Origin: a virus
DNA length: 50,432 nucleotides
Strand: one strand, 5' to 3'
Virus record (IMG/VR): IMGVR_UViG_3300029258_003011
Every line of letters begins with the position of its first letter. Position 1 is the stretch's first letter. Shown here in pieces: positions 19,417 through 43,439 of this stretch. Made by a program: the position numbers and the translations under genes. The notes under the pieces are model-generated. The model made no database searches. It was not told the DNA's origin and saw nothing but the letters and a program-made list of their open reading frames with translations.

Positions 19417-19505
19417 ATAACAGATAAAAATTTAAGGAACAATTTCTATCTACTGGAAATTAATATATATAGTATATTGGAGTTTTTATGATTTTTACCT
19501 TTTCC

Positions 19506-19570
19506 ATTTGAGTCGTTTTTGAATCTTTTTGTGTTGCTTATTTGAATCTTATTTGAGTCTTTTTGTTTTT
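19506..19570. repeat. Iteron-like direct repeats (tttgaRtc + T-run, 4 copies)
   Basis: 'tttgagtc' at 19508 and 19552. 'tttgaatc' at 19518 and 19541. Each is followed by T-runs, in AT-rich non-coding DNA. Confidence 0.5.
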
Positions 19571-19839
19571 TATTTAACTTTTACTGAAACCGGTGTTTGA
19601 AAGTTTTTGAGATCTATAAGAATGTCTGCATTCTTAAATCGGTCAAATGTTGAGATTATTCTGTCCTTCATATCAGGAGGCATAAAAGAATCTGTGGCAT
19701 AAATATGTAATCCATTCTTTAGATTAAAAACTATACCATCATGACTATGCTTTATTTCAATAATCTCTTCCCTCTGAACTTCAATTTGTGTGCCATTACT
19801 GAAAATGGTTACTTTTTCTGTTTTGGTTTCCTCACTCAT
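19570..19839 (-). CDS. Hypothetical protein
   Basis: 89-aa ORF with SD 'GGGGGAA'. Last gene of the RNAP gene string. No motif. Confidence 0.4.
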   Translation of the reverse strand: MSEETKTEKVTIFSNGTQIEVQREEIIEIKHSHDGIVFNLKNGLHIYATDSFMPPDMKDRIISTFDRFKNADILIDLKNFQTPVSVKVK

Positions 19840-19842
19840 TTC

Positions 19843-20436
19843 TCAAATTCCCCCTTGTAAATTTCGCAAAATAATTTCCATCCTATTGTTAACTGTTCGC
19901 GTAATTATAAACCCTAGTATTCCCTTTTTGTAATATGTTCTAAGAAAAATAGAAACCATCTCATTTATATTTGAGATCTCATCCACCTCTTCTATTTCTG
20001 ATATTACCTTCTTACTGTTACTATAACAGTATTCTTCAATATTAAGATTTTTTAAATCTTCTCCCAAAAATGCCCATAATCGAGCTAAAAAATCAATATG
20101 GTCATATTCTAAAAACTCGAGAAATTCAAGAACCCGATCTACATCTTCTTGACTATCAATATAAATATTCTCTGGAAAAATAAATTCATAAACCTCTTCA
20201 ATTTTCTCAAGAATTGAATTGCATAGCTCCTTCTGAGCTATAATATCTTGTTTCCTTATATCATTTTTTGCTATCAAATAAATAGTTTTAAATTCTTCTG
20301 TACCTATAGAATTTATAATATCGGAAAAGTCGTGGAGGAATGACGCAATATTTTCCTTTCCTTTTTCTTCTTCATCATCTAACTCAAACGTACGAACACT
20401 ATTTCCCGCCAAAACTCTTACCATTTCTTGTTCCAA
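19843..20436 (-). CDS. Hypothetical acidic protein immediately downstream of RNAP beta
   Basis: 197 aa, acidic with 'LEFLEFLEYDHIDFLARL'. Start abuts the beta gene stop with a 1-nt gap. Confidence 0.4.
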   Translation of the reverse strand: MEQEMVRVLAGNSVRTFELDDEEEKGKENIASFLHDFSDIINSIGTEEFKTIYLIAKNDIRKQDIIAQKELCNSILEKIEEVYEFIFPENIYIDSQEDVDRVLEFLEFLEYDHIDFLARLWAFLGEDLKNLNIEEYCYSNSKKVISEIEEVDEISNINEMVSIFLRTYYKKGILGFIITRTVNNRMEIILRNLQGGI

Positions 20437-20437
20437 T

Positions 20438-23400
20438 TTATTTTCCTCCTATCATAAGTGCTGTCATATAAGCATTCAGAAGGTCTTTTCCTGGAGTAAC
20501 TTTTGCTGGTCTATAATTAGCAGAACCAGTTTCTACAATATCTGCTATTATTTCATTTTTAGTTCCTGCATCATCAGATAGTGCTCCAAAGAATTCTGAT
20601 AATACTAATGGACAATTATAAGAAATCAAAGAATAAGTATCCAATTCTCCCATTCTCTGACCACCTTCTTTTCTCTTTCCTGCAGTCGGTTGCATTACTT
20701 TTCCTGTAACAGGTCCGGTTGATCTAGCATGAAGTTTTTCAGCGCCGATATGTTCAAGTTTTACAAAATATGAATAACCAACAGGAACTTTGGTCTTTGT
20801 CTTAGTATTATATTCTGGCAACTTCAGATTGTATCCACTTTTAAGATCCAATACTTTCATTGCAGCAATGATTTCCTTATACGCAGGAGCTTTAAATGGC
20901 GGAATTAGTAAAGTAAATGTATTGCTTTGTTTTATTTGCTCTACAAATATTTTGAATTGCCTTGTTGATAATCCATTAAAATTCTTTATTATTCCATTTG
21001 AAAAATCAGGATTTTTTGAATATAGTTTTGGCAATACTTTTTTCATCATAGCAATAACAGAAGTTTTTGATGGATTTTTCAAAATGACTTTTGCCATTTC
21101 TTTTCCTATGAGACCACTATATAGTTCATAAAATTGCCCCATATTCATTCTGTTTATTACACCAATTGGATTGCATATAATTTCAACTTTATCTCCCCAC
21201 GGAGTTACTGGCATAATCTCATCTTTTTCTACTAATGAAATAATTCCTTTTGCACCATGTCTATTTGTAAGTTTATCACCAACATTGACATGAAGTTCTT
21301 GCTCTATCTTAAATCGAATAAGAACTCCTTTTATTGTAACTCCTCGTTCAGTAAACTTTATTCGGGGTGGTTTTTTATGTCTTTTTGCAGTCCTTGCTGC
21401 CAAATCTTTCAACATAGGAAAGGTTGATTCAGGCACGTTAGAGAACACTTCAATATCAACAATAGTCCCGCCAGGCGATTTTTTAATAAACTGTCCACCA
21501 AAAATTTCCTCCCCTTCTTCATCTTCGCTTACTCCTATTAGTTGCTCAATCTCACCAATGGTCTTTCTTAATATTGGATCTCCTTTTTTGGTTTTATCTC
21601 CAATACTGGCAATATCAAGCAATCTATCTTCTTTTGATAATAAAACATCTTCAACAATACCATGTAAGGATGTAAGCTTTTCTTCATTAAGAACCGATTC
21701 ACTAATTACAATTCCATCCTCAAAATTGTAACCTTTATATGGCATTAGAGCAACACAAAGAGTTCTTCCCAATGAAATAGATCCTTTATCAATTGAGCTA
21801 CCTTCGGATGCTATATGTCCTTGTTTTATAGTTTGTCCTTCTGTCACTTTATTTTTAAATACACTTAGGGTATCTTTACCAGAACCTGATTTTAAATGAA
21901 CAGGTGTTGTGTCTATAGTATGTTTCTTTCCATTTGTGCATGTAATAATAACATTATCATCAGTAACTTTAGTAACCTTTCCAGAGCAAGGTGATTTCTT
22001 TACAAATACATCAGATAATGAATTAGTAAGCATTGATTCATATCCAGTTTGAACGACTGGAGCTTCTGGATTTTTCAATGGAACAGCTTGTCTCATTTGA
22101 TTAGCGCCAAACATTACTCGTGGACCATCATTATTTTCTATGAATGGAATAAGAGAAGTAGTTGTAGATAGAAGTCCAGAATTCTCTCCTTCTTTCATTT
22201 CTTTTTCTAAAAATAATCCTCTTGCTGACGTAATGTATGCGTCTACTGTCAAATGTTGTGCAATTCCAACATTATCACTTTCTGAAGTATCGAGAGGATC
22301 TATATTTCCATACATAGAAGGATGAACGTCTCTGCCTTCCATTGTTATAGCACCTTTATCAGGAATTCCTCCTATTGATTTTCCTATTGGTGAGACTCTA
22401 GTCATTGATGCCATTTCTTCGACAGGGTTTGCAAATTCCATATCAGCAACAATTTCAGAATTTACAAAGTCGCTCATTACTTTCCCTTGAGGTATTGAAA
22501 ATTGAGCTTCTTTGTTTCCAGATAATACTTTCTCTTTATATTCAGTATATGCTGCAAGAATTTGTTTTTGAGCTAAGTGAACAATAATTTCAGAATTTCT
22601 AATTCTTTGATTTGATATATCGTTCCTTTGCTGAGTAAAACCAGTCACAACTTTTGCTGCCATATAGTGCATTATTTGCTCTAATTCATAAGGCAATTGT
22701 TTATTAATCAATACTTGTTTTGCAACTGGGTCAACAATATTTTCAAGATTTGATGAAATCAAAAATGTTGAATTTACTCGACCTGTCATTCCTATAATAA
22801 GATCATTGAAATAATCTTTGGTTCCAAATTCTTTATCAATTGAATAAACTGAAAAGTCATTTCTTACAAAAGATTGACATAATTCTTTTTGAAGTTCAGA
22901 CTCTGCTCCTTCAAATACTATATATTCATCATCTGAAATTTTGGTAGAGAATTCTATATCTTTAGTTGGAGCATCTTTTGTTATTCTATGTTTAATTTTG
23001 AATGCTTTTAGTGTTTTATCAAAACCAAAACTATATGATAATACAACCATTAGAGGGAGCTTATATGACGCCATATAAACCTCTAAATGCGATTCACGCT
23101 TGGTACGCTTACTCTGTATATGGAACGCCGAGTAACTACTTTCAAACTTGGAATCATAAGGTTTAGGAAAGGTTATTGGGCATAAAACAATCTGATTGAT
23201 AAGACATTTTCTTCGTCCATTTATTTCAAACGTACCATCCTTTCCTATCTTAGGAATGTCTATTATAATCTCATGGGTATTTTTGAAATCATCTGTCAAT
23301 ACTACCTTTATAGTGCTAATATCAGATCTATCTATTTCCCCCTCTTTTTGCTTTTTATCTACAATTGAAATGCTTTTTGTTTTTAATGGAACTTCCTTCG

Positions 23401-24529
23401 TAGTGAGCACTTTGAAAGAATTTGTCATGTCAGTCTTTAGATTCTTTTCAAAATCAACCTGTCTTTTCTCAAATAGATGTTCCGGAGATTTATTATCGAC
23501 CGCTTTTTCAATATTGGATGATTGAACTATTATATCTTCAGATGCAGTCTTGGGTTTCTTTCTTTCCAATAATTCATCAGCGAATCTTTTATCAACCTTT
23601 TTAAGAACTGCGGATTTCTTATCTGCTTTTACAGATTTAGCTCCAAGTTTTGCTCTATTTATATTACCACTAGTTTTATGAAGAATTGATGCCGTAGCAA
23701 TCTCTTTTCCATCATTGCTATCGAAATCTCCAGAACTTATTTTTTGAAGTGTTTCTTCATCCTTAGCAAGGTAAGTCTTAACAGCAGAAGCAACTTTGCT
23801 TGTATTCTTTGGTGAAATATCTCCAGATATTTTTTTCATCACCATATTTGCTGCTTTATCTATTTCTTCTTGTTTTTCTTCTTCGGTCGTAGATATCTTT
23901 ATATTCTTAATCATTTGTTTAACACGACCAAAATGAAAAGTTCTGTCTTTAACAAGAAGTCTATATGCTGATGTTTCTTCAGTTTTTACATTTAAAAGCA
24001 TATGGTCAAAATATAGTTGCTCCTCTTTCATTTGAAGAAGTATGGTAAATATCTTCCTATTTATGAAAGTATTTATTTCTTTATTTGAATCAACTGAATA
24101 TATAAGGACCTTTTTGAAGTTATTAGGATAAGAAGAAAATACTTTTTGAAGCATATTTCTTATTAAGAAACCAGCTCGTTGCCTATAATGAGAGGGTTTA
24201 AATGAAGTATCAATTGCTTTAAGAAATGCTGACAAATCATAAATGATATTTTTTCCTTCTGGCACTTTTTGAGTTGATAAATATGCCTGTAGACCACTTG
24301 CTTTATATAGTGCTCTGTCTTCTTGATCAAGTCGAGATCTTGGGATTTTTGTAAATGGGACGACTACATGCCTTGCGTCAGTTCGTCTAATATTTAGTGC
24401 TTTATACCCATCAGTCAATTCCGAGTTTTCGCTAAAAAACACTATTAGGAATGGTTCTTTAGGATCTGGTTTGAATCGCACCCCATCAACAACATGTGTA
24501 TATGGTCTTAGTTTATCAAATTGAATCAT
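20438..24529 (-). CDS. rpoB: DNA-directed RNA polymerase beta subunit homolog (full-length, unsplit)
   Basis: 1363 aa. 'NRHGAKGIISLVEKDEIMPVTPWGDKVEIICNPIGVINRMNMGQFYE' aligns with the bacterial beta 'RHGNKGVISK...DIVLNPLGVPSRMNIGQ' catalytic region. C-terminal 'GGQRMGELD...' beta clamp motif. Confidence 0.9.
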   Translation of the reverse strand: MIQFDKLRPYTHVVDGVRFKPDPKEPFLIVFFSENSELTDGYKALNIRRTDARHVVVPFTKIPRSRLDQEDRALYKASGLQAYLSTQKVPEGKNIIYDLSAFLKAIDTSFKPSHYRQRAGFLIRNMLQKVFSSYPNNFKKVLIYSVDSNKEINTFINRKIFTILLQMKEEQLYFDHMLLNVKTEETSAYRLLVKDRTFHFGRVKQMIKNIKISTTEEEKQEEIDKAANMVMKKISGDISPKNTSKVASAVKTYLAKDEETLQKISSGDFDSNDGKEIATASILHKTSGNINRAKLGAKSVKADKKSAVLKKVDKRFADELLERKKPKTASEDIIVQSSNIEKAVDNKSPEHLFEKRQVDFEKNLKTDMTNSFKVLTTKEVPLKTKSISIVDKKQKEGEIDRSDISTIKVVLTDDFKNTHEIIIDIPKIGKDGTFEINGRRKCLINQIVLCPITFPKPYDSKFESSYSAFHIQSKRTKRESHLEVYMASYKLPLMVVLSYSFGFDKTLKAFKIKHRITKDAPTKDIEFSTKISDDEYIVFEGAESELQKELCQSFVRNDFSVYSIDKEFGTKDYFNDLIIGMTGRVNSTFLISSNLENIVDPVAKQVLINKQLPYELEQIMHYMAAKVVTGFTQQRNDISNQRIRNSEIIVHLAQKQILAAYTEYKEKVLSGNKEAQFSIPQGKVMSDFVNSEIVADMEFANPVEEMASMTRVSPIGKSIGGIPDKGAITMEGRDVHPSMYGNIDPLDTSESDNVGIAQHLTVDAYITSARGLFLEKEMKEGENSGLLSTTTSLIPFIENNDGPRVMFGANQMRQAVPLKNPEAPVVQTGYESMLTNSLSDVFVKKSPCSGKVTKVTDDNVIITCTNGKKHTIDTTPVHLKSGSGKDTLSVFKNKVTEGQTIKQGHIASEGSSIDKGSISLGRTLCVALMPYKGYNFEDGIVISESVLNEEKLTSLHGIVEDVLLSKEDRLLDIASIGDKTKKGDPILRKTIGEIEQLIGVSEDEEGEEIFGGQFIKKSPGGTIVDIEVFSNVPESTFPMLKDLAARTAKRHKKPPRIKFTERGVTIKGVLIRFKIEQELHVNVGDKLTNRHGAKGIISLVEKDEIMPVTPWGDKVEIICNPIGVINRMNMGQFYELYSGLIGKEMAKVILKNPSKTSVIAMMKKVLPKLYSKNPDFSNGIIKNFNGLSTRQFKIFVEQIKQSNTFTLLIPPFKAPAYKEIIAAMKVLDLKSGYNLKLPEYNTKTKTKVPVGYSYFVKLEHIGAEKLHARSTGPVTGKVMQPTAGKRKEGGQRMGELDTYSLISYNCPLVLSEFFGALSDDAGTKNEIIADIVETGSANYRPAKVTPGKDLLNAYMTALMIGGK

Positions 24530-24547
24530 TATATGATCTCCATCATA

Positions 24548-27500
24548 TTATCTCTTCTTGGTTTCAAGAACATCTCCTGTAACAATCTTTTCAATAATTG
24601 AAGGATCTATATCTTCTTCTGATATTAGTCCAGTTCTTATTGCTTCTCCAACATTTTCAAATGCTAATCCTTGAAGGAATCCTCCAGAAAATACCACCTT
24701 TTTTATATTTATAAGTACAGGATCATATGGTTCTACAAGTCGTGCGGGAATATGAATATTATCTTTATTTCTTAAAACCTGTGAGCATAACACCTCAATA
24801 TGTACAGAATCCATATCTGTAAGAGGAGGGGAATATACTCCAAGAACCCTTTTATATAAATGTTGGGCATCCTTTAATATTTCTCTTCCTCCAAGAAGTC
24901 TTTCAACAAATGCGACCTGACCTTTAATTTCTGAAGCTTCTGTTGATACTTCAAGAACTGTACTATTTGGAGGAAATGTCAATTTAATAAATTCTCTAGT
25001 TTTTTCTATTTCATAAACTGAGAATGATACTGAATAATCAAGAACCATATCAAATATTACATCCGCATATTCAACTCTTGCAATAACACTTTTTACCCAT
25101 AATTTATCATCTTCTAGTTTTATACTATCTGTTGTTTTATAATCTGCTAATGATATGGTTACTGAGCATGGACTTTTTGTTACTAGATTGTTTTCCTCCT
25201 GATTTAGATATTTAGATATAGATCCTTTGTCTAAATTTGAAAGAGGATCTCCATCAATGATATCTTGAGTCATATCATGCTTAATTAATTCAACCGCACC
25301 TCCCGTATGAAAGGTTCTCATAATCATCTGAGTTCCGCGTTCTCCAATTGATTGTGCAGCGATTATTCCAATGTACGGACTTCTATGTCTTTTTAATAGT
25401 TCGCCATAACATTTGAAACATATTTTTGATGACTTACAAAACATTGGGGATCTTAGTTTTATCACTTGACCAACTTTATAATCCTTCTCTTTAAAAACTT
25501 TTGATCCTACGTATCTTCCATCCAACCTTTTCATTAAATCGCTTGTAAGTTTTATAGTAAGAGTTTTCTTTGTACCACAGTCCATTAAATATTGGTCTGC
25601 TTCTACTGAATTTAATACAAATGCTAATTTTCTTGACATATATCCAGTATCCGCAGTATTTAAAACCCTATCAATAATACCTTTTCTTGCACCAGAAGAA
25701 GCATTAAAAAATTCTTTATTTGATAGTCCGTCTGAGTAAGAACCAGAAATTGGATCAAGAACATTTCCTTGTGGATCTGCAATAATACCTTTAGCAACCA
25801 GAATCTGCATTGCTTGACCCATCCCTTTTCCTGCTCCAGAATCCATTAAATCTCCAAATCCAGTATCCTTTATATGTTTCTTCACAATTTTCTCTGCTTG
25901 TTTTAATAACACTTCTGCTTCTTCAGGAGACGACGATTCTATTTTCTTTTTAATTGTGTATACTTCAGACGGAAGTTCTAATATATCTAAAGTTATACTT
26001 GGAGACATTATAGTTGCCCATTTGAATGCAACCTTTTCCATTTTACTTACAGAGTCTTTTATAGTCTCCATTTTATATTTCTTAGATAATTCCTTGATTA
26101 TAGAGTTTCCTAATTTTTTAGTTATTACTCCATCTTGAAAAGGAAAAGCTTTTGGAAAACAACTATTGAATATAGCTCTTCCCATTGTGGTAGTCATCCC
26201 TTTATATTTTACAGGAATTGTGGGATCATTTGCATTTTCAAGATCCTCTTCTTTAACTGCAATTGGAGATTGTTTTTTCTTTACTCCTTTAGTTAAAGTA
26301 TATAATCCAACCCACATTTCTTTACTTAATTCAAAATTTAAACTATCCGTACGAGCAGTACCAATTCCAGTCATCATTCTTGTTCTTGCTTCTTCTTGAG
26401 CTTCATCTGTTATTGGGTGATATACCGCCATTGTGTCTCCATCAAAATCTGCATTGTGAGCACCAACTTGCATTGTACACATCTGAATGGTATCACCCGA
26501 GTGTAAGATAGGATAGTATGCTGCATATGATCCAGTATGAAGAACTGGGTCTCTCTTTACTAAAACAACTCTTCCTCTCATAGAAACTTCAGCAGCTTCA
26601 TATATTACTTCATAAAGTCCTTCTGGTATTTTATCTCCACCTCTTATTCCCTTAAGAACTCTTCTTAAATTATCAACTGAAAGGTCTAATCCTGTATAAT
26701 CCTTTATCTCATTTTCTAGTCTTTTGGTAATTATTTTGTTTTTATACATCAGATGATGTATAATAAAGGGTTCAAATAAACTTACTGCCATTCTTAAAGG
26801 CAATCCGACTTCATCAATTTTAAGATCAGGACCTGGTGTAATTACCGCTCTTCCTGAAAAATCAGTTCTTTTGCCAAGCATTTGATTTCTTATTAGTCCG
26901 CTTTTTTTGGCAATTTTAGTTCTGATATATGCATCATGGTCTTTAACAGAATTTTGAAGGGCATAAGTTAGAAGATCAAGTAAAGGTCCACCACCAGAAC
27001 TTTTTACTTGGAATGTTCTTCTGATTATAACTTGATACATATCGTTTAGTTTATCAATTACCCATTCTCCACTACTTTCATCTTTATATGCAGATCTATA
27101 TTCAGGCGGGATAACTGGAAGTTTATTAATAAAAACATTTCCTGATTTATATTCTTTTTTAAGAACATTTACAAACTTCTCTCTAGATGTTGTTCCAGTT
27201 CTAAATTCTATTTTTGGAAACATTTTTACAAATTCGGATATTCCTGTTACTCCATTTTCATCTTCTACTAACATTCCATCTTTATCAAGAGAGAATGATG
27301 ATTCTGTAGATAGAAATTTAGATATTTTTTTATCAAGACGAAGAATTACATCAAGAGCGGTTGGATGAATAATTGTAGCTTGAAGATCAATATAAGCATA
27401 TATTTTTTTTCTTTCTAACGAACCAACCACGCCAAAAATATCTTCTGAAAATACTCCTTCTGGGTGAAACTCATCTGGTCTTGAGAAGTATTCCGCTGAT

Positions 27501-27553
27501 GTTATCGCATCAAGTCCTCTTGCCCATTGGTTGATATCTAAGAGAGAAATCAT
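24548..27553 (-). CDS. rpoC: DNA-directed RNA polymerase beta' subunit homolog (minimal, ~1000 aa)
   Basis: Absolutely conserved Mg-binding motif 'NADFDGDTMAVYHP'. 1001 aa, lacking lineage-specific insertions and an obvious N-terminal Zn ribbon. Located immediately upstream of the beta gene. Confidence 0.9.
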   Translation of the reverse strand: MISLLDINQWARGLDAITSAEYFSRPDEFHPEGVFSEDIFGVVGSLERKKIYAYIDLQATIIHPTALDVILRLDKKISKFLSTESSFSLDKDGMLVEDENGVTGISEFVKMFPKIEFRTGTTSREKFVNVLKKEYKSGNVFINKLPVIPPEYRSAYKDESSGEWVIDKLNDMYQVIIRRTFQVKSSGGGPLLDLLTYALQNSVKDHDAYIRTKIAKKSGLIRNQMLGKRTDFSGRAVITPGPDLKIDEVGLPLRMAVSLFEPFIIHHLMYKNKIITKRLENEIKDYTGLDLSVDNLRRVLKGIRGGDKIPEGLYEVIYEAAEVSMRGRVVLVKRDPVLHTGSYAAYYPILHSGDTIQMCTMQVGAHNADFDGDTMAVYHPITDEAQEEARTRMMTGIGTARTDSLNFELSKEMWVGLYTLTKGVKKKQSPIAVKEEDLENANDPTIPVKYKGMTTTMGRAIFNSCFPKAFPFQDGVITKKLGNSIIKELSKKYKMETIKDSVSKMEKVAFKWATIMSPSITLDILELPSEVYTIKKKIESSSPEEAEVLLKQAEKIVKKHIKDTGFGDLMDSGAGKGMGQAMQILVAKGIIADPQGNVLDPISGSYSDGLSNKEFFNASSGARKGIIDRVLNTADTGYMSRKLAFVLNSVEADQYLMDCGTKKTLTIKLTSDLMKRLDGRYVGSKVFKEKDYKVGQVIKLRSPMFCKSSKICFKCYGELLKRHRSPYIGIIAAQSIGERGTQMIMRTFHTGGAVELIKHDMTQDIIDGDPLSNLDKGSISKYLNQEENNLVTKSPCSVTISLADYKTTDSIKLEDDKLWVKSVIARVEYADVIFDMVLDYSVSFSVYEIEKTREFIKLTFPPNSTVLEVSTEASEIKGQVAFVERLLGGREILKDAQHLYKRVLGVYSPPLTDMDSVHIEVLCSQVLRNKDNIHIPARLVEPYDPVLINIKKVVFSGGFLQGLAFENVGEAIRTGLISEEDIDPSIIEKIVTGDVLETKKR

Positions 27554-27557
27554 ATTT

Positions 27558-27947
27558 TTATCTCATTTTCTTATTAAATTGTCGTGTGGATTGTGCTTTT
27601 TTAACTGCTCCGCTAACTGAAGTAGGAACCTCTTTTTCGTATCTTCCCTTTAATCGTTCCAATTTCTGCATAAGAATAGCAAGAGCTTCCTGATTTACTG
27701 CGTCTGTTCCTACCAGATTCTGTGCCATCTTGAGCGAAAATGCAATCATCTTTGGACATTTTCTAGAATTACTTCCACAAAGAGGAAATAGAACATCTTC
27801 AATTCTCATAAAGCAATTTGGATGCTTTTTATAATATTCTGCCATGCCTTCTTTCGTAAGACCTTTAATTATTTTCTCTGTGCTATCAGGATCTACGACT
27901 GCCTGGACTTTTCTTAATAGTTCATCTAATACTTTGGATTCTGACAT
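27558..27947 (-). CDS. Hypothetical protein, first gene downstream of a strong hairpin and co-oriented with RNAP genes
   Basis: 129 aa. RBS GGAGG 8 nt before ATG. Cys-containing ('CFMRIEDVLFPLCGSNSRKC'). Confidence 0.4.
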   Translation of the reverse strand: MSESKVLDELLRKVQAVVDPDSTEKIIKGLTKEGMAEYYKKHPNCFMRIEDVLFPLCGSNSRKCPKMIAFSLKMAQNLVGTDAVNQEALAILMQKLERLKGRYEKEVPTSVSGAVKKAQSTRQFNKKMR

Positions 27948-27979
27948 TTTTATACCTCCAAAAAAAATTGACGTGCGCT

Positions 27980-28023
27980 GAGGAAATACTCTTTTAATTA
28001 TGTTCTAAAAAGAGTATTTCCTC
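27980..28023 (-). terminator. Strong 16-bp stem-loop upstream of the RNAP gene string
   Basis: 'gaggaaatactctttt'/'aaaagagtatttcctc' perfect inverted repeat with a 12-nt loop in the 86-nt gap. On the minus strand it is followed 15 nt later by T8 and the GGAGG RBS of ORF 27558..27947. Confidence 0.5.
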
Positions 28024-28033
28024 ACGGTTCGTT

Positions 28034-29482
28034 TTAAAAGTCAGAATTAATAAGTCTTCCGATTTGATTAAATTCGTTTTCTAAACCTCCAGAAAACATA
28101 AGACTATAAAATTTAATCATATCTGCTTCTATCTTTGACAATGGAATTCCAGGCAAATTACTTCCATCAAATATATTACAGAAATTTACCCTTGATATTC
28201 TTCCTACCAAAAAGCTAAGAATTTTATGGGGCAATATTTTTGTATTGAAACCATAAAAACTTTGAGTCTTATTTTGAGAATTAACAAAGTCATGAATCAA
28301 TTTTATCTGATAAGTGGTAGTAATTGCTGGAGCATTCAAAGGAAAATAATCAAGCAATGAAAATAGATTTTTATATTCAGTCTTGAATACCTTCTTAAGA
28401 ATCCCATACAGATAGCATGATAAAACTGCAGTATGCTCTGGAGACAAAGTCTTGAAATGTCTATAAGGAATATTAGTAACCTTCGCTAATATTGGGAAGA
28501 CTACACATTCGCTCAATGGAGATACATGCTTAATATCATAACATCTATTTTGAAATTCAACGATTATTTTATCGCTTTTAGGATCTTCAGTCGCTGAAAT
28601 CAAAGCGGTCTTTTCCATCACTTTGAACATCTTGTCATATGCAATCCCTTTGAGTCTTCCTAATGTGTCATTATAACTATAGGTCTTCAAGTTATTTACA
28701 CTCAAAGTGTGGATATTTTCAGTTGATACAGAATCCTCGTAAATAACAGAACTTTTATATACTGATCTCAAGAACCATTTTACAGACTCTTCAACAACAG
28801 ATACAAAATAAGTTATTGGATTTTTATCTTCCTCACACAAAATAAGGATTGAGTTCATAATAAAATTGAAGATCTCAATTACATGAACATCAATGCTTTT
28901 ACATTGAATCATCTTGATATAATCCCACATATATCTATCAGTGAGGTTATATCTAAAAGTTTTCGTTTTTACAATATCAAAAACTTTTCTGATAATCTCT
29001 GTACCGGCAAGATCGGCGGCGATCTCATTATATATTTTCTTATGAAGTCTCTGATCTACACGGAGATTTTGAGTGTTAAAAATTATGGAATATAATTTCA
29101 AATAACCAGAAAGTTTGGTTATTAATTCAATCTCATATGGTTCAAACAAGATGCTTGATTTTTTAACTTTTCCCATATCAACAAAGGTAGAAAAATCAAT
29201 TTCCTGACTATCAATATAAGCATTAACATAATCTTTAAAAGAATCTATGTTTTCAGTTAGCATCAAATATCTTATTTCATCATTTTCGGAATATCTTAAA
29301 AGAAAATCTTCCATCCAATTATCAAAATCTTCACCAAGAGTTTGAGACATTCCTTCTATAAAATTACAGATGATATGAAACTTATTCGTAATTGAAGACG
29401 GGGTTAATTTTAGAGTAGTAATTTCTTTTCCATCACGACTAACCTTATAAATCTTTGCTGTTTCCTTTTTCAGTTCGATCAC
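28034..29482 (-). CDS. Hypothetical protein
   Basis: 482-aa ORF with SD AAGGAG. No recognisable motif. Confidence 0.45.
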   Translation of the reverse strand: MIELKKETAKIYKVSRDGKEITTLKLTPSSITNKFHIICNFIEGMSQTLGEDFDNWMEDFLLRYSENDEIRYLMLTENIDSFKDYVNAYIDSQEIDFSTFVDMGKVKKSSILFEPYEIELITKLSGYLKLYSIIFNTQNLRVDQRLHKKIYNEIAADLAGTEIIRKVFDIVKTKTFRYNLTDRYMWDYIKMIQCKSIDVHVIEIFNFIMNSILILCEEDKNPITYFVSVVEESVKWFLRSVYKSSVIYEDSVSTENIHTLSVNNLKTYSYNDTLGRLKGIAYDKMFKVMEKTALISATEDPKSDKIIVEFQNRCYDIKHVSPLSECVVFPILAKVTNIPYRHFKTLSPEHTAVLSCYLYGILKKVFKTEYKNLFSLLDYFPLNAPAITTTYQIKLIHDFVNSQNKTQSFYGFNTKILPHKILSFLVGRISRVNFCNIFDGSNLPGIPLSKIEADMIKFYSLMFSGGLENEFNQIGRLINSDF

Positions 29483-29640
29483 AATAATTCTCCTTATTTA
29501 GCTTCTTTTACAATATGACGTACCCCACACATATTGAGTTATAAAATAAAAACAAAAATAAAAAAAGGACTTTTTGATACCCTATTCGTAAAATTAATAT
29601 ATATTTTTACGCTGAGGTAAATGGAAGAGAACTGATAAAG

Positions 29641-40771: not shown

Positions 40772-41269
40772 TTATTTTATCTCCTCTCCTTCTGCATTAA
40801 AGAATTCAATTTTATCAAACACTTCGTTGAAAACCGTATCTACTAATAATGTTTCCAATTGTTCATGCATCCTATCTATAACATGTTCTGGAAACTTCCC
40901 TTTAGATGTTTCTCTTCTCCTTTTACATTCTTCAAGAGAAGTGGTCATGACCATAGCTCTGATGTTATATCCATATTCTTGAGCTATAGATGACCACATT
41001 TTTACTGTATTGATATTAGTATTTGTTTCATCAACGACAATGTTTAATCCTCGTATCATATGTGCTCTAACCATAGTTCTTGCTATAGCGCCTATATGAG
41101 GTTCAACAAGATGATTAAAATCTGATCCAAATGCCAATCGAATATCATCTCTGCTTATAATATGATACCCATAAACACCTTCATTAAAACCTTTGCCAAT
41201 AATATAATCATCGACAAATGTTGATTTACCGCTTCCTGGCAGACCTACCATTATTATGAGTTCGGTCAT
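40772..41269 (-). CDS. Polynucleotide 5'-kinase domain protein (T4 Pnk kinase-domain-like, no phosphatase domain)
   Basis: 'IIMVGLPGSGKSTFVDDYI' and 'ISRDDIRLAF' align with T4 Pnk 'ILTIGCPGSGKSTWAREFI' and 'INRDDYRQSI'. 'NIVVDETNTNINTVKMWSSIAQEYGYNIRAMVM' aligns with '[33 protein letters not shown]'. Confidence 0.7.
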   Translation of the reverse strand: MTELIIMVGLPGSGKSTFVDDYIIGKGFNEGVYGYHIISRDDIRLAFGSDFNHLVEPHIGAIARTMVRAHMIRGLNIVVDETNTNINTVKMWSSIAQEYGYNIRAMVMTTSLEECKRRRETSKGKFPEHVIDRMHEQLETLLVDTVFNEVFDKIEFFNAEGEEIK

Positions 41270-43031: not shown

Positions 43032-43439
43032 CTATTGCACTTTCCCTTTGAATAGAAAATATTCTGTGATCTTAGTGCCTTTCATTTTAGTCACTTTAGT
43101 GGATACAAAGTGATACAATCCTTTTATCTTTCTGCCGTTGAAACGTACCACCATATGTGCTGTTGAATATTTTTCAATGGTACATGCTCCATCGTCAAAT
43201 TTAACCAATTTTCCAGCACCATAACCTGTATTTATCACTCCTATAAATAATGCTTCCTCTTCTGAATGATCATGGGTTTTTACTGCCAGTACTTTTGGTC
43301 CTGCCTCAAGTGGTACTCCTTTACGAACTGCAAAGGAATCCCATATTTTACTATTTGGTTTTCTAAATCTTATATCTTGATGCTTCCCTGCTCTTTTAGC
43401 ATAATGGTCAACAACTATGAATTTTGATTTGCTTTGCAT
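43032..43439 (-). CDS. LigD-type 3'-phosphoesterase (PE) domain protein
   Basis: 'FIVVDHYAKRAGKHQDIRFRKP...WDSFAVRKGVP' and 'VLAVKTHDHSEE' / 'YGAGKLVKFDDG' match the LigD PE consensus (FVVQKHDATRLHYDFRLE...WAVPKGPS...VEDHPLEY...YGAGTV). Confidence 0.6.
   Translation of the reverse strand: MQSKSKFIVVDHYAKRAGKHQDIRFRKPNSKIWDSFAVRKGVPLEAGPKVLAVKTHDHSEEEALFIGVINTGYGAGKLVKFDDGACTIEKYSTAHMVVRFNGRKIKGLYHFVSTKVTKMKGTKITEYFLFKGKVQ

Follow-up and report, generated by a model that had tools for sequence, protein, structure and literature searches.

Does the virus contig IMGVR_UViG_3300029258_003011 encode a complete bacterial-type RNA polymerase (RNAP), to which of the known phage enzymes is it related, and what could direct it to promoters? 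The window analysed here is this 50,432-nt metagenomic contig in its entirety, to which all coordinates refer; its G+C content is 33%, and essentially all of its long open reading frames (ORFs) lie on the minus strand. Two long genes within it are an intact phage beta'/beta RNAP, probably of a lineage described in 2020 by Weinheimer and Aylward (Nat Commun 2020, PMC7481178), who reported 97 phage contigs with full-length beta and beta' under the name 'mReC' (multisubunit-RNAP-encoding Caudovirales). Phages of this kind can carry two RNAP sets; we call the larger one, to which the window genes belong, class A and the smaller one class B. The overall explanation that we consider likely joins a class A catalytic core, a 482-aa candidate specificity factor and a gene block that runs from one promoter-like motif to the next.

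The beta' and beta subunits

The beta' ORF lies upstream of the beta ORF, with a gap of 18 nt between them:

24548..27553, minus strand: beta' subunit, 1001 aa, ATG start, unsplit, class A (Pfam, alignment)
20438..24529, minus strand: beta subunit, 1363 aa, ATG start, unsplit, class A (Pfam, alignment)
23480..24529, minus strand: N-terminal extension of beta (~340 aa; residues ~1-350), comprising an alpha/beta domain (1-210), a second, helical one (216-320) and, at 324-358, a disordered linker

The first-pass annotation of this DNA had described a 1001-aa beta' with the motif NADFDGDTM directly upstream of a 1363-aa beta, each subunit being a complete single ORF. ORFs, Pfam and motifs confirm the identification: beta' matches Rpb1 domain 2 (E 2e-27), domain 5 (2e-27) and, weakly, domain 3, and contains NADFDGDTM; beta matches Rpb2 domain 6 (1e-39), domain 3 (9e-8) and, weakly, domain 7, and contains NRHGAKGI...NPIGVINRMNMGQ. 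Completeness is borne out by alignments to E. coli RpoC and RpoB. Both ORFs are intact, unsplit and terminated by stop codons, so that the picture which the annotation had named as contrary to its own, with clamp or trigger loop missing and the enzyme split after all, or with pseudogenised ORFs, is not the one seen in the window. A search across the window for further RNAP fragments found none, leaving a single RNAP set there. Its statement that no alpha, omega or sigma is visible stands in so far as Pfam found no alpha (RpoA), omega (RpoZ) or sigma-70 domain in the window ORFs that were scanned; for sigma it is true at the sequence level only.

Setting a beta' family alignment of 29 sequences against E. 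coli RpoC, we find that the window beta' is indeed minimal, as had been proposed. The N-terminal Zn ribbon is absent (E. coli C70-C88 are deleted, and there is no Cys in the first 140 residues), and the clamp helices and rudder are shortened. The other elements looked for are all kept: the NADFDGD active site, the bridge helix (GARKGIIDRVLNTADTGYMSRKL), trigger helix 1 (IGERGTQMIMRTFHTGGA, with M745, R746 and H749), the C-terminal conserved region, and the second Zn site, whose C659, C706, C712 and C715 are invariant in the 29 homologs. A GDP motif stands 15 residues past HTGG, with D769 and P770 at least 90% conserved. In SI3-less enzymes such as that of Thermus, this position is taken by the GGLPRV of trigger-loop helix 2, and beta' therefore has no SI3-sized insertion. 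The 131 residues between HTGGA and VERLLGGRE were also considered as an SI3-like or TLID-like trigger-loop insertion; this was rejected, as the RpoC alignment shows helix 2 followed by a jaw-like segment.

Against E. coli RpoB, the beta subunit has neither SI1 nor SI2 and is canonical over all of the sequence that follows about residue 350. The likeness to the bacterial core thus extends over the catalytic elements, bridge helix, trigger loop, second Zn site, and the alignable beta fork and double-psi beta-barrel (DPBB), and a separate helical specificity factor would add to it. Apart from the missing or shortened elements named above, the window enzyme differs in its extra beta N-terminal extension and in the order beta' then beta, not rpoB then rpoC. 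Most likely, beta' and beta form a working two-subunit catalytic core, which would need neither alpha nor omega, as in AR9 and phiKZ.

Two RNAP sets and a likely virion-type paralog

On five IMG/VR contigs a class A module and a class B pair occur together, 20-40 kb apart (loci L090+L012, L111+L020, L121+L010, L127+L019 and L106+L031); one of these contigs is the mReC contig Ga0180432_10000070. By this arrangement, the class B pair of the window genome would be expected just past the low-coordinate end of the contig. AR9 likewise has two enzymes, a virion and a non-virion RNAP, and hidden Markov models (HMMs) of the class A and class B subunits, scored against its annotated RNAP genes, gave a reciprocal pattern:

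Class A beta' HMM (N-terminal half): AR9 virion gp145, 151 bits; non-virion gp270, 86 bits
Class B beta' HMM (N-terminal half): AR9 virion gp145, 44 bits; non-virion gp270, 123 bits
Class A beta HMM: AR9 virion gp189, 199 bits; non-virion gp105, 0 bits, and gp089, 136 bits
Class B beta HMM: AR9 virion gp189, 100 bits; non-virion gp105 and gp089, 288 bits

PHROG families, mapped via the AR9 proteins, agree with this pattern across many jumbo phages. In its N-terminal part, the window beta' scores 148 bits to the virion beta'N family versus 86 to the non-virion one, and the window beta scores 171 bits to the virion betaN family with no match to the non-virion betaN family. By hhalign, the class A beta N-terminus aligns from residue 277 onward with AR9 virion betaN gp189 (probability 98%, E 2e-14). 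Ahead of its aligned start gp189 carries ~340 residues, an extension that the non-virion betaN (496 aa) does not have.

The HMM, PHROG and hhalign patterns therefore point to the window enzyme as the unsplit counterpart of the virion-type paralog. As part of the overall explanation judged likely above, the class A core, including the beta N-terminal extension, would correspond to the AR9/phiKZ virion RNAP (vRNAP) and class B to the non-virion enzyme. The AR9/phiKZ vRNAP is the best jumbo-phage match for the N-terminal half of beta' and for the N-terminal and middle part of beta; like class A, it has a long beta region ahead of the core and occurs in phages with a second RNAP set. The class A genes also neighbour baseplate-hub, PAAR and amidase (lysis) genes, a location that fits a virion-type enzyme, which may be packaged in the virion. 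The differences are that AR9/phiKZ vRNAPs consist of four to five polypeptides, often with introns, and that no sigma-like subunit is known for them. Set against the assignment, the C-terminal half of beta' is indecisive: it scores 117 bits to the non-virion PHROG family versus 86 to the virion family, and 98 bits to AR9 virion gp264 versus 86 to non-virion gp154. A PHROG scan of the genes around one class B pair was uninformative. The converse assignment, with class A as the non-virion enzyme, would follow from its gp226-like neighbour described below and was rejected on the reciprocal HMM and PHROG scores.

A sigma-like candidate and a promoter-like motif

Upstream of beta' lies a gene that the first-pass annotation had listed among candidates for a promoter-specificity factor. 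It proves a good one, since its predicted fold matches AR9 gp226 and phiKZ gp68. It is flanked by the first of two copies of a motif:

28034..29482, minus strand: 482-aa all-alpha protein, predicted AR9 gp226 / phiKZ gp68 fold
29593..29605, minus strand: motif P1, AATATATATTAAT, 110 nt upstream of the 482-aa gene; position weight matrix (PWM) score 17.7, second best
19459..19471, minus strand: motif P2, TATATATATTAAT, which opens the next transcription unit; PWM score 23.9, best in the window

The 482-aa protein has 559 homologs of near-constant length and 52-89% identity, and is conserved as strongly as beta'. It contains no Pfam domain, and sigma-70 region 2 and region 4 are not recognisable. 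An AlphaFold2 (AF2) model is all-helical, with a predicted local distance difference test score (pLDDT) of 73, and Foldseek against viral models returned five full-length matches to phage proteins of 464-559 aa, of which only two are named (uncultured Myoviridae and Serratia phage Yaphecito). A PDB sequence-profile search with the family and tblastn against 50,697 phage records found nothing. A single hhalign match places residues 162-242, the invariant core of the family, on gp226 184-263, its sigma-2-like domain, with TDRYMWDYIK opposite SDVVIWTYLK of the 2.1bis helix, the helix that reads the AR9 promoter in the published domain map of gp226 (PMC9209446). At the position aligned with gp226 V206, which selects uracil over thymine, the 482-aa protein has Tyr. 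The family HMM matches only loci with class A genes. Predicted fold and aligned segment together suggest that the 482-aa protein is probably a sigma-like specificity subunit of the gp226/gp68 family, the counterpart of the accessory subunit that jumbo-phage RNAPs possess. We propose that it docks on the class A core and would read promoters through its invariant D-x-x-M-W-x-Y-I-K helix; that it gives this particular core its promoter specificity we would put at even odds.

The lineage consensus of the motif is cTATATATATTAAT, followed after 3-4 nt by TG. TATATATTAATTT occurs in two exact copies, both intergenic and on the coding strand. P1 and P2 are the only high-scoring sites in the window, the third-best PWM site (10.4) lying inside a gene, and they bracket a block of six genes. 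In related loci, 26 of 53 matches with at most one mismatch are both sense-strand and intergenic, intergenic DNA making up 5.7% of the sequence; a second set of loci gave ~60 sense versus 2 antisense matches, and sites held out of the PWM scored 15.7 and 20.8. Of 11 class A loci, 8 have the motif upstream of the 482-aa homolog, and in the second set 21 of 40 loci have it within 700 nt upstream of the gene. Syntenic copies of P2 follow the beta, 197-aa and 89-aa genes in L002-L008 and in ~20 of loci L090-L129, and in L009, where the 482-aa homolog is inverted, the motif is inverted along with the gene.

A similar element is known from AR9, whose annotated early promoters have AAATATATATTAT with TG a few bases on. 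One of them lies 38 nt upstream of the gp226 gene, so that this gene and the 482-aa gene are both preceded by a 13-nt AT-rich promoter-type motif. The two motifs have a low-complexity 10-nt core in common, and the early promoters of jumbo phages are described as conserved AT-rich motifs of ~10 nt that the virion RNAP reads (PMC7598289). The 13-nt AT-rich motif is probably a promoter for a phage RNAP, and the block would be transcribed from it, possibly by the class A enzyme. Four direct repeats of GAYTCAAA lie directly upstream of P2 (~19504-19569, minus strand) and could be binding sites for a regulator.

The remaining members of the block, beside the 482-aa, beta' and beta genes, are as follows:

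27948..28033, minus strand: spacer containing a 17-bp hairpin and, 12 nt beyond it, a U8 run (RNA folding)
27558..27947, minus strand: 129-aa basic protein (isoelectric point, pI, 9.6), encoded between the 482-aa and beta' genes; 7 class A loci have a homolog there
19843..20436, minus strand: 197-aa acidic protein (pI 4.4), directly after beta; 7 class A loci have a homolog there
19570..19839, minus strand: 89-aa protein, whose gene closes the block; conserved across 7 class A loci

We propose that the six genes (482-aa, 129-aa, beta', beta, 197-aa and 89-aa) form one unit running from promoter to promoter. The 197-aa protein has no Pfam or PHROG match and the 89-aa protein no significant family match. 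The 129- and 197-aa genes, which the first-pass annotation had also listed as candidates, are conserved neighbours of the core, but nothing that points to a role was found. The sole Pfam match of the 129-aa protein, shared by its L003 homolog, is to the eukaryotic DCB domain (Mon2/Sec7/BIG1; 28.6 bits, above the gathering score), and is probably an artefact of helical composition.

Several results speak against this account of factor, core and motif. No significant sequence match joins the 482-aa family to gp226, and the hhalign match has an E-value of 0.016 and a probability of 2.8%. The model is of moderate confidence (predicted template modelling score, pTM, 0.47), with low pLDDT in its most conserved part. 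The gene lies beyond 7-10 kb of any RNAP gene in L093, L095, L115 and L122; in L115, ~55 kb separate it from the class A genes (L006) that the contig also carries. In the window, a strong hairpin separates it from the genes downstream (-25.8 kcal/mol, z -5.1; 0 of 200 shuffles as stable), although this is not a canonical intrinsic terminator and is not kept where the genes overlap in relatives (L084, L103). A PWM scan of AR9 misses the annotated early promoters among its top 40 matches; the two consensus sequences are therefore alike and not interchangeable, and their likeness may be convergence on easily melted sequence. Finally, the proposed pairing crosses the known assignment, because gp226 and gp68 are the fifth, sigma-like subunits of the non-virion RNAPs (PMC9209446, PMC7598289) and the window core is virion-like.

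This last point favours a pairing with class B, in which the 482-aa protein would serve the class B, non-virion-like enzyme and stand beside class A through conserved gene order only. The class A enzyme would then be packaged in the virion, read the AT-rich early-type motif in some other way and switch on the 482-aa gene early. Such an arrangement would suit the motif that moves with the inverted gene in L009, the separate early promoter of the AR9 gp226 gene, the hairpin and U-run 3' of the 482-aa gene, the four loci in which that gene lies apart from both RNAP sets, and the position of the class A genes among those for baseplate hub, PAAR protein and amidase. What favours class A is gene adjacency together with overlapping ORFs. 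Of the 34 loci with enough flank in the second set of 40, ~30 have class A beta' and beta next after the 482-aa gene, adjacent and co-oriented, and class B genes never follow it; the 482-aa ORF overlaps beta' itself in L103 and the next gene in L084. The motif also never intervenes between the 482-aa gene and beta' in any locus, and most class B pairs have no motif within 3 kb upstream. We regard service to class B as possible but unlikely.

Less probable still, and in our view improbable, is that the AT-rich 13-mer is a -10-like element for a host sigma-70-type factor, or some other regulatory or packaging signal. The motif is of low complexity and contains TATAAT-like hexamers, and sigma-70 promoters figure in the annotation of cultured relatives such as YerA41. 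However, thirteen near-invariant positions persist across phages whose proteins are only ~50% identical, no -35 region is conserved, the sites are strictly intergenic and sense-strand, and a generic scan for sigma-70 promoters and terminators found no excess over shuffled sequence; the early promoters of jumbo phages, too, are described as short AT-rich motifs.

Lineage, gene splitting and other features of the contig

The topoisomerase II, UvsX, clamp-loader, ribonucleotide reductase, hub and amidase genes of the window mark it as phage DNA; it also encodes an SbcD-like nuclease and RtcB, and its baseplate hub is gp5-like (Phage_base_V). As a further part of the explanation favoured above, the window would be a genome fragment from a large T4-like phage, uncultured and of the mReC lineage already published. 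Inclusion in mReC was based on beta and beta' on one contig, each complete and at least 800 aa, with NADxDGD in beta'. The window has 1363 and 1001 aa with NADFDGD, as tested by Pfam Rpb1/Rpb2 and not by the authors' COG0085/COG0086 HMMs, and its hub, amidase, UvsX, topoisomerase II, clamp-loader, ribonucleotide reductase and SbcD-like genes give it a tailed-phage context. Among the adjacent pairs in Supplementary Data 2 of that paper (PMC7481178), many combine a beta of 1358-1386 aa with a beta' of 1000-1017 aa, and a second size class has beta of ~1000-1050 aa and beta' of ~900-975 aa; several large contigs in the table carry both 'a' and 'b' sets. The listed contig Ga0180432_10000070 bears the same module as the window (L084), and the same stretch of it, as L090, reaches 1690 and 2030 bits with the class A HMMs; identity of the window subunits to bacterial ones is only ~27%. 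The window resembles mReC in being an uncultured tailed-phage contig with adjacent full-length beta and beta' genes of matching size, the NADxDGD motif and T4-like hallmark genes; the mReC samples are largely sediment and subsurface metagenomes. Searches in the article's text did not turn up two RNAP sets per genome, nor did we see there a discussion of gene order, accessory factor or promoters. Since mReC pairs have been published, unsplit phage beta and beta' were already known; the window is probably a new member, and the novelty that the first-pass annotation implied for the unsplit pair does not hold.

The protein database holds >2600 homologs of the window beta', the best 120 of which are 777-1389 aa long (most ~1000) and 51-100% identical to it; an exact look-up of the beta' sequence gave no record. 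Cultured phages are distant. Those with a single bacterial-type RNAP set (YerA41, RHph_Y65, vB_Yru_GN1 and Cobetia phage Carin-5) encode beta and beta' homologs, with best tblastn identities of 24-29% to the window, and in Yersinia phage YerA41 beta' is in two ORFs; YerA41 and Rhizobium phage RHph_Y65, the two that were scored, come nearer to class B than to class A. We found no member of the 482-aa family near the RNAP genes of these phages, and the beta gene of RHph_Y65 was not located within the 18-kb region examined. Megablast of the 7.1-kb RNAP region against the 50,697 phage records gave no match. That the two genes are cellular rpoC/rpoB, on a mis-binned contig or recently captured from a host, or decaying pseudogenes, is highly improbable: bacterial beta' and beta are the best solved-structure matches by sequence, but identity to them is only ~25-30% and confined to parts of the sequences, the contig is phage-like throughout and co-linear on a single strand, the >2600 homologs of the same length are on phage contigs, catalytic and Zn-site residues are invariant in intact ORFs, and the published phylogeny sets this size class in a clade apart from cellular RNAPs (PMC7481178).

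Gene order was surveyed in 80 IMG/VR loci and two other contigs; the related loci were retrieved with an alignment query, a single beta' protein query having given no match. The reversed order beta'-beta noted in the first-pass annotation is real, but it is not special, since beta' precedes beta in all unfused loci examined, of class A as of class B; the annotation of YerA41 reads beta'N, beta'C, beta, and match positions in vB_Yru_GN1 and Carin-5 fit beta' then beta. In ~40 further IMG/VR loci (L033-L081) the phage RNAP genes show a third architecture, in which the domain order is inverted: a single ORF of 1800-2490 aa has beta (N-terminal) fused to beta' (C-terminal).

Whereas beta and beta' of the AR9 and phiKZ RNAPs are each divided over at least two polypeptides, the window has one ORF per subunit, and splits are found among its relatives. 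In ten class A loci, from relatives ~50-56% identical, beta' is split after the trigger loop (window residue ~777); in one class A locus it is split at about residue 528, and in three loci beta is split (L006-L008, L096, L097, L112, L118, L120, L121 and L124-L128). Between the two beta' halves of L007 lies a 333-aa HNH-like (homing-endonuclease) ORF (12331..13332). Rfam found no group I intron and no other family in the window or in the split-gene loci.

These comparisons permit a tentative interpretation, which we put forward as somewhat less than probable: that the block represents an unsplit, slowly evolving version of a jumbo-phage virion RNAP together with its own gp226/gp68-type sigma-like subunit. 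If so, both the virion/non-virion duplication and the sigma-like factor would predate gene fragmentation, the multi-piece architecture of AR9 and phiKZ would have arisen by splits like those in the window's relatives, one of which holds a homing-endonuclease gene, and a factor of the 482-aa family may serve virion RNAPs, for which no specificity factor is known. Unsplit phage beta'/beta genes have been in the literature since 2020 and leave the general picture unchanged; it is the surrounding detail that could change it. The links added here, namely the gp226/gp68-like neighbour, the virion-like assignment, the promoter-like motif and the splitting in relatives, were not found in the literature searched and are of moderate interest; no paper linking mReC to gp68/gp226 was found, an absence that is not proof. 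An abundant uncultured lineage that keeps both AR9/phiKZ RNAP paralogs in a near-bacterial, alignable form would offer a route to placing the fast-evolving jumbo-phage enzymes in the RNAP phylogeny. The predicted two-subunit core with one factor is also a candidate for reconstitution and a way to probe the promoter specificity of virion-type RNAPs; these prospects rest on prediction.

Elsewhere in the window, a tRNA search found none. An 849-aa protein (14304..16853, minus strand) matches two Pfam entries, the shoulder domain of the major vault protein (E 5e-20) and a Vault_3 repeat (E 5e-7); it has a homolog at the equivalent position in L003 and is unusual for a phage. G+C-rich hairpins lie 3' of the 150-, 344- and 849-aa genes (13124-13179, 14215-14303 and 16854-16942), in a stretch at 12-18 kb with a G+C fraction of 0.39-0.42 versus 0.30-0.36 elsewhere, which may be a highly expressed or differently derived module. 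In a 103-aa protein (5697..6008, minus strand), Pfam N_methyl (E 3e-9) marks an N-terminal methylation motif like that of type IV pilins. A QueD-like 6-pyruvoyl-tetrahydropterin synthase (E 1e-30; 5274..5687, minus strand) and a phosphoribosyltransferase (557..1042, minus strand) may be encoded by base- or nucleotide-modification genes. Genes for nucleic-acid end repair or reversal, all on the minus strand, encode an RtcB ligase (2712..3842), an AAA_33 / zeta-toxin-like kinase (40772..41269), a LigD-type 3'-phosphoesterase (43032..43439) and a NADAR protein (12671..13123).

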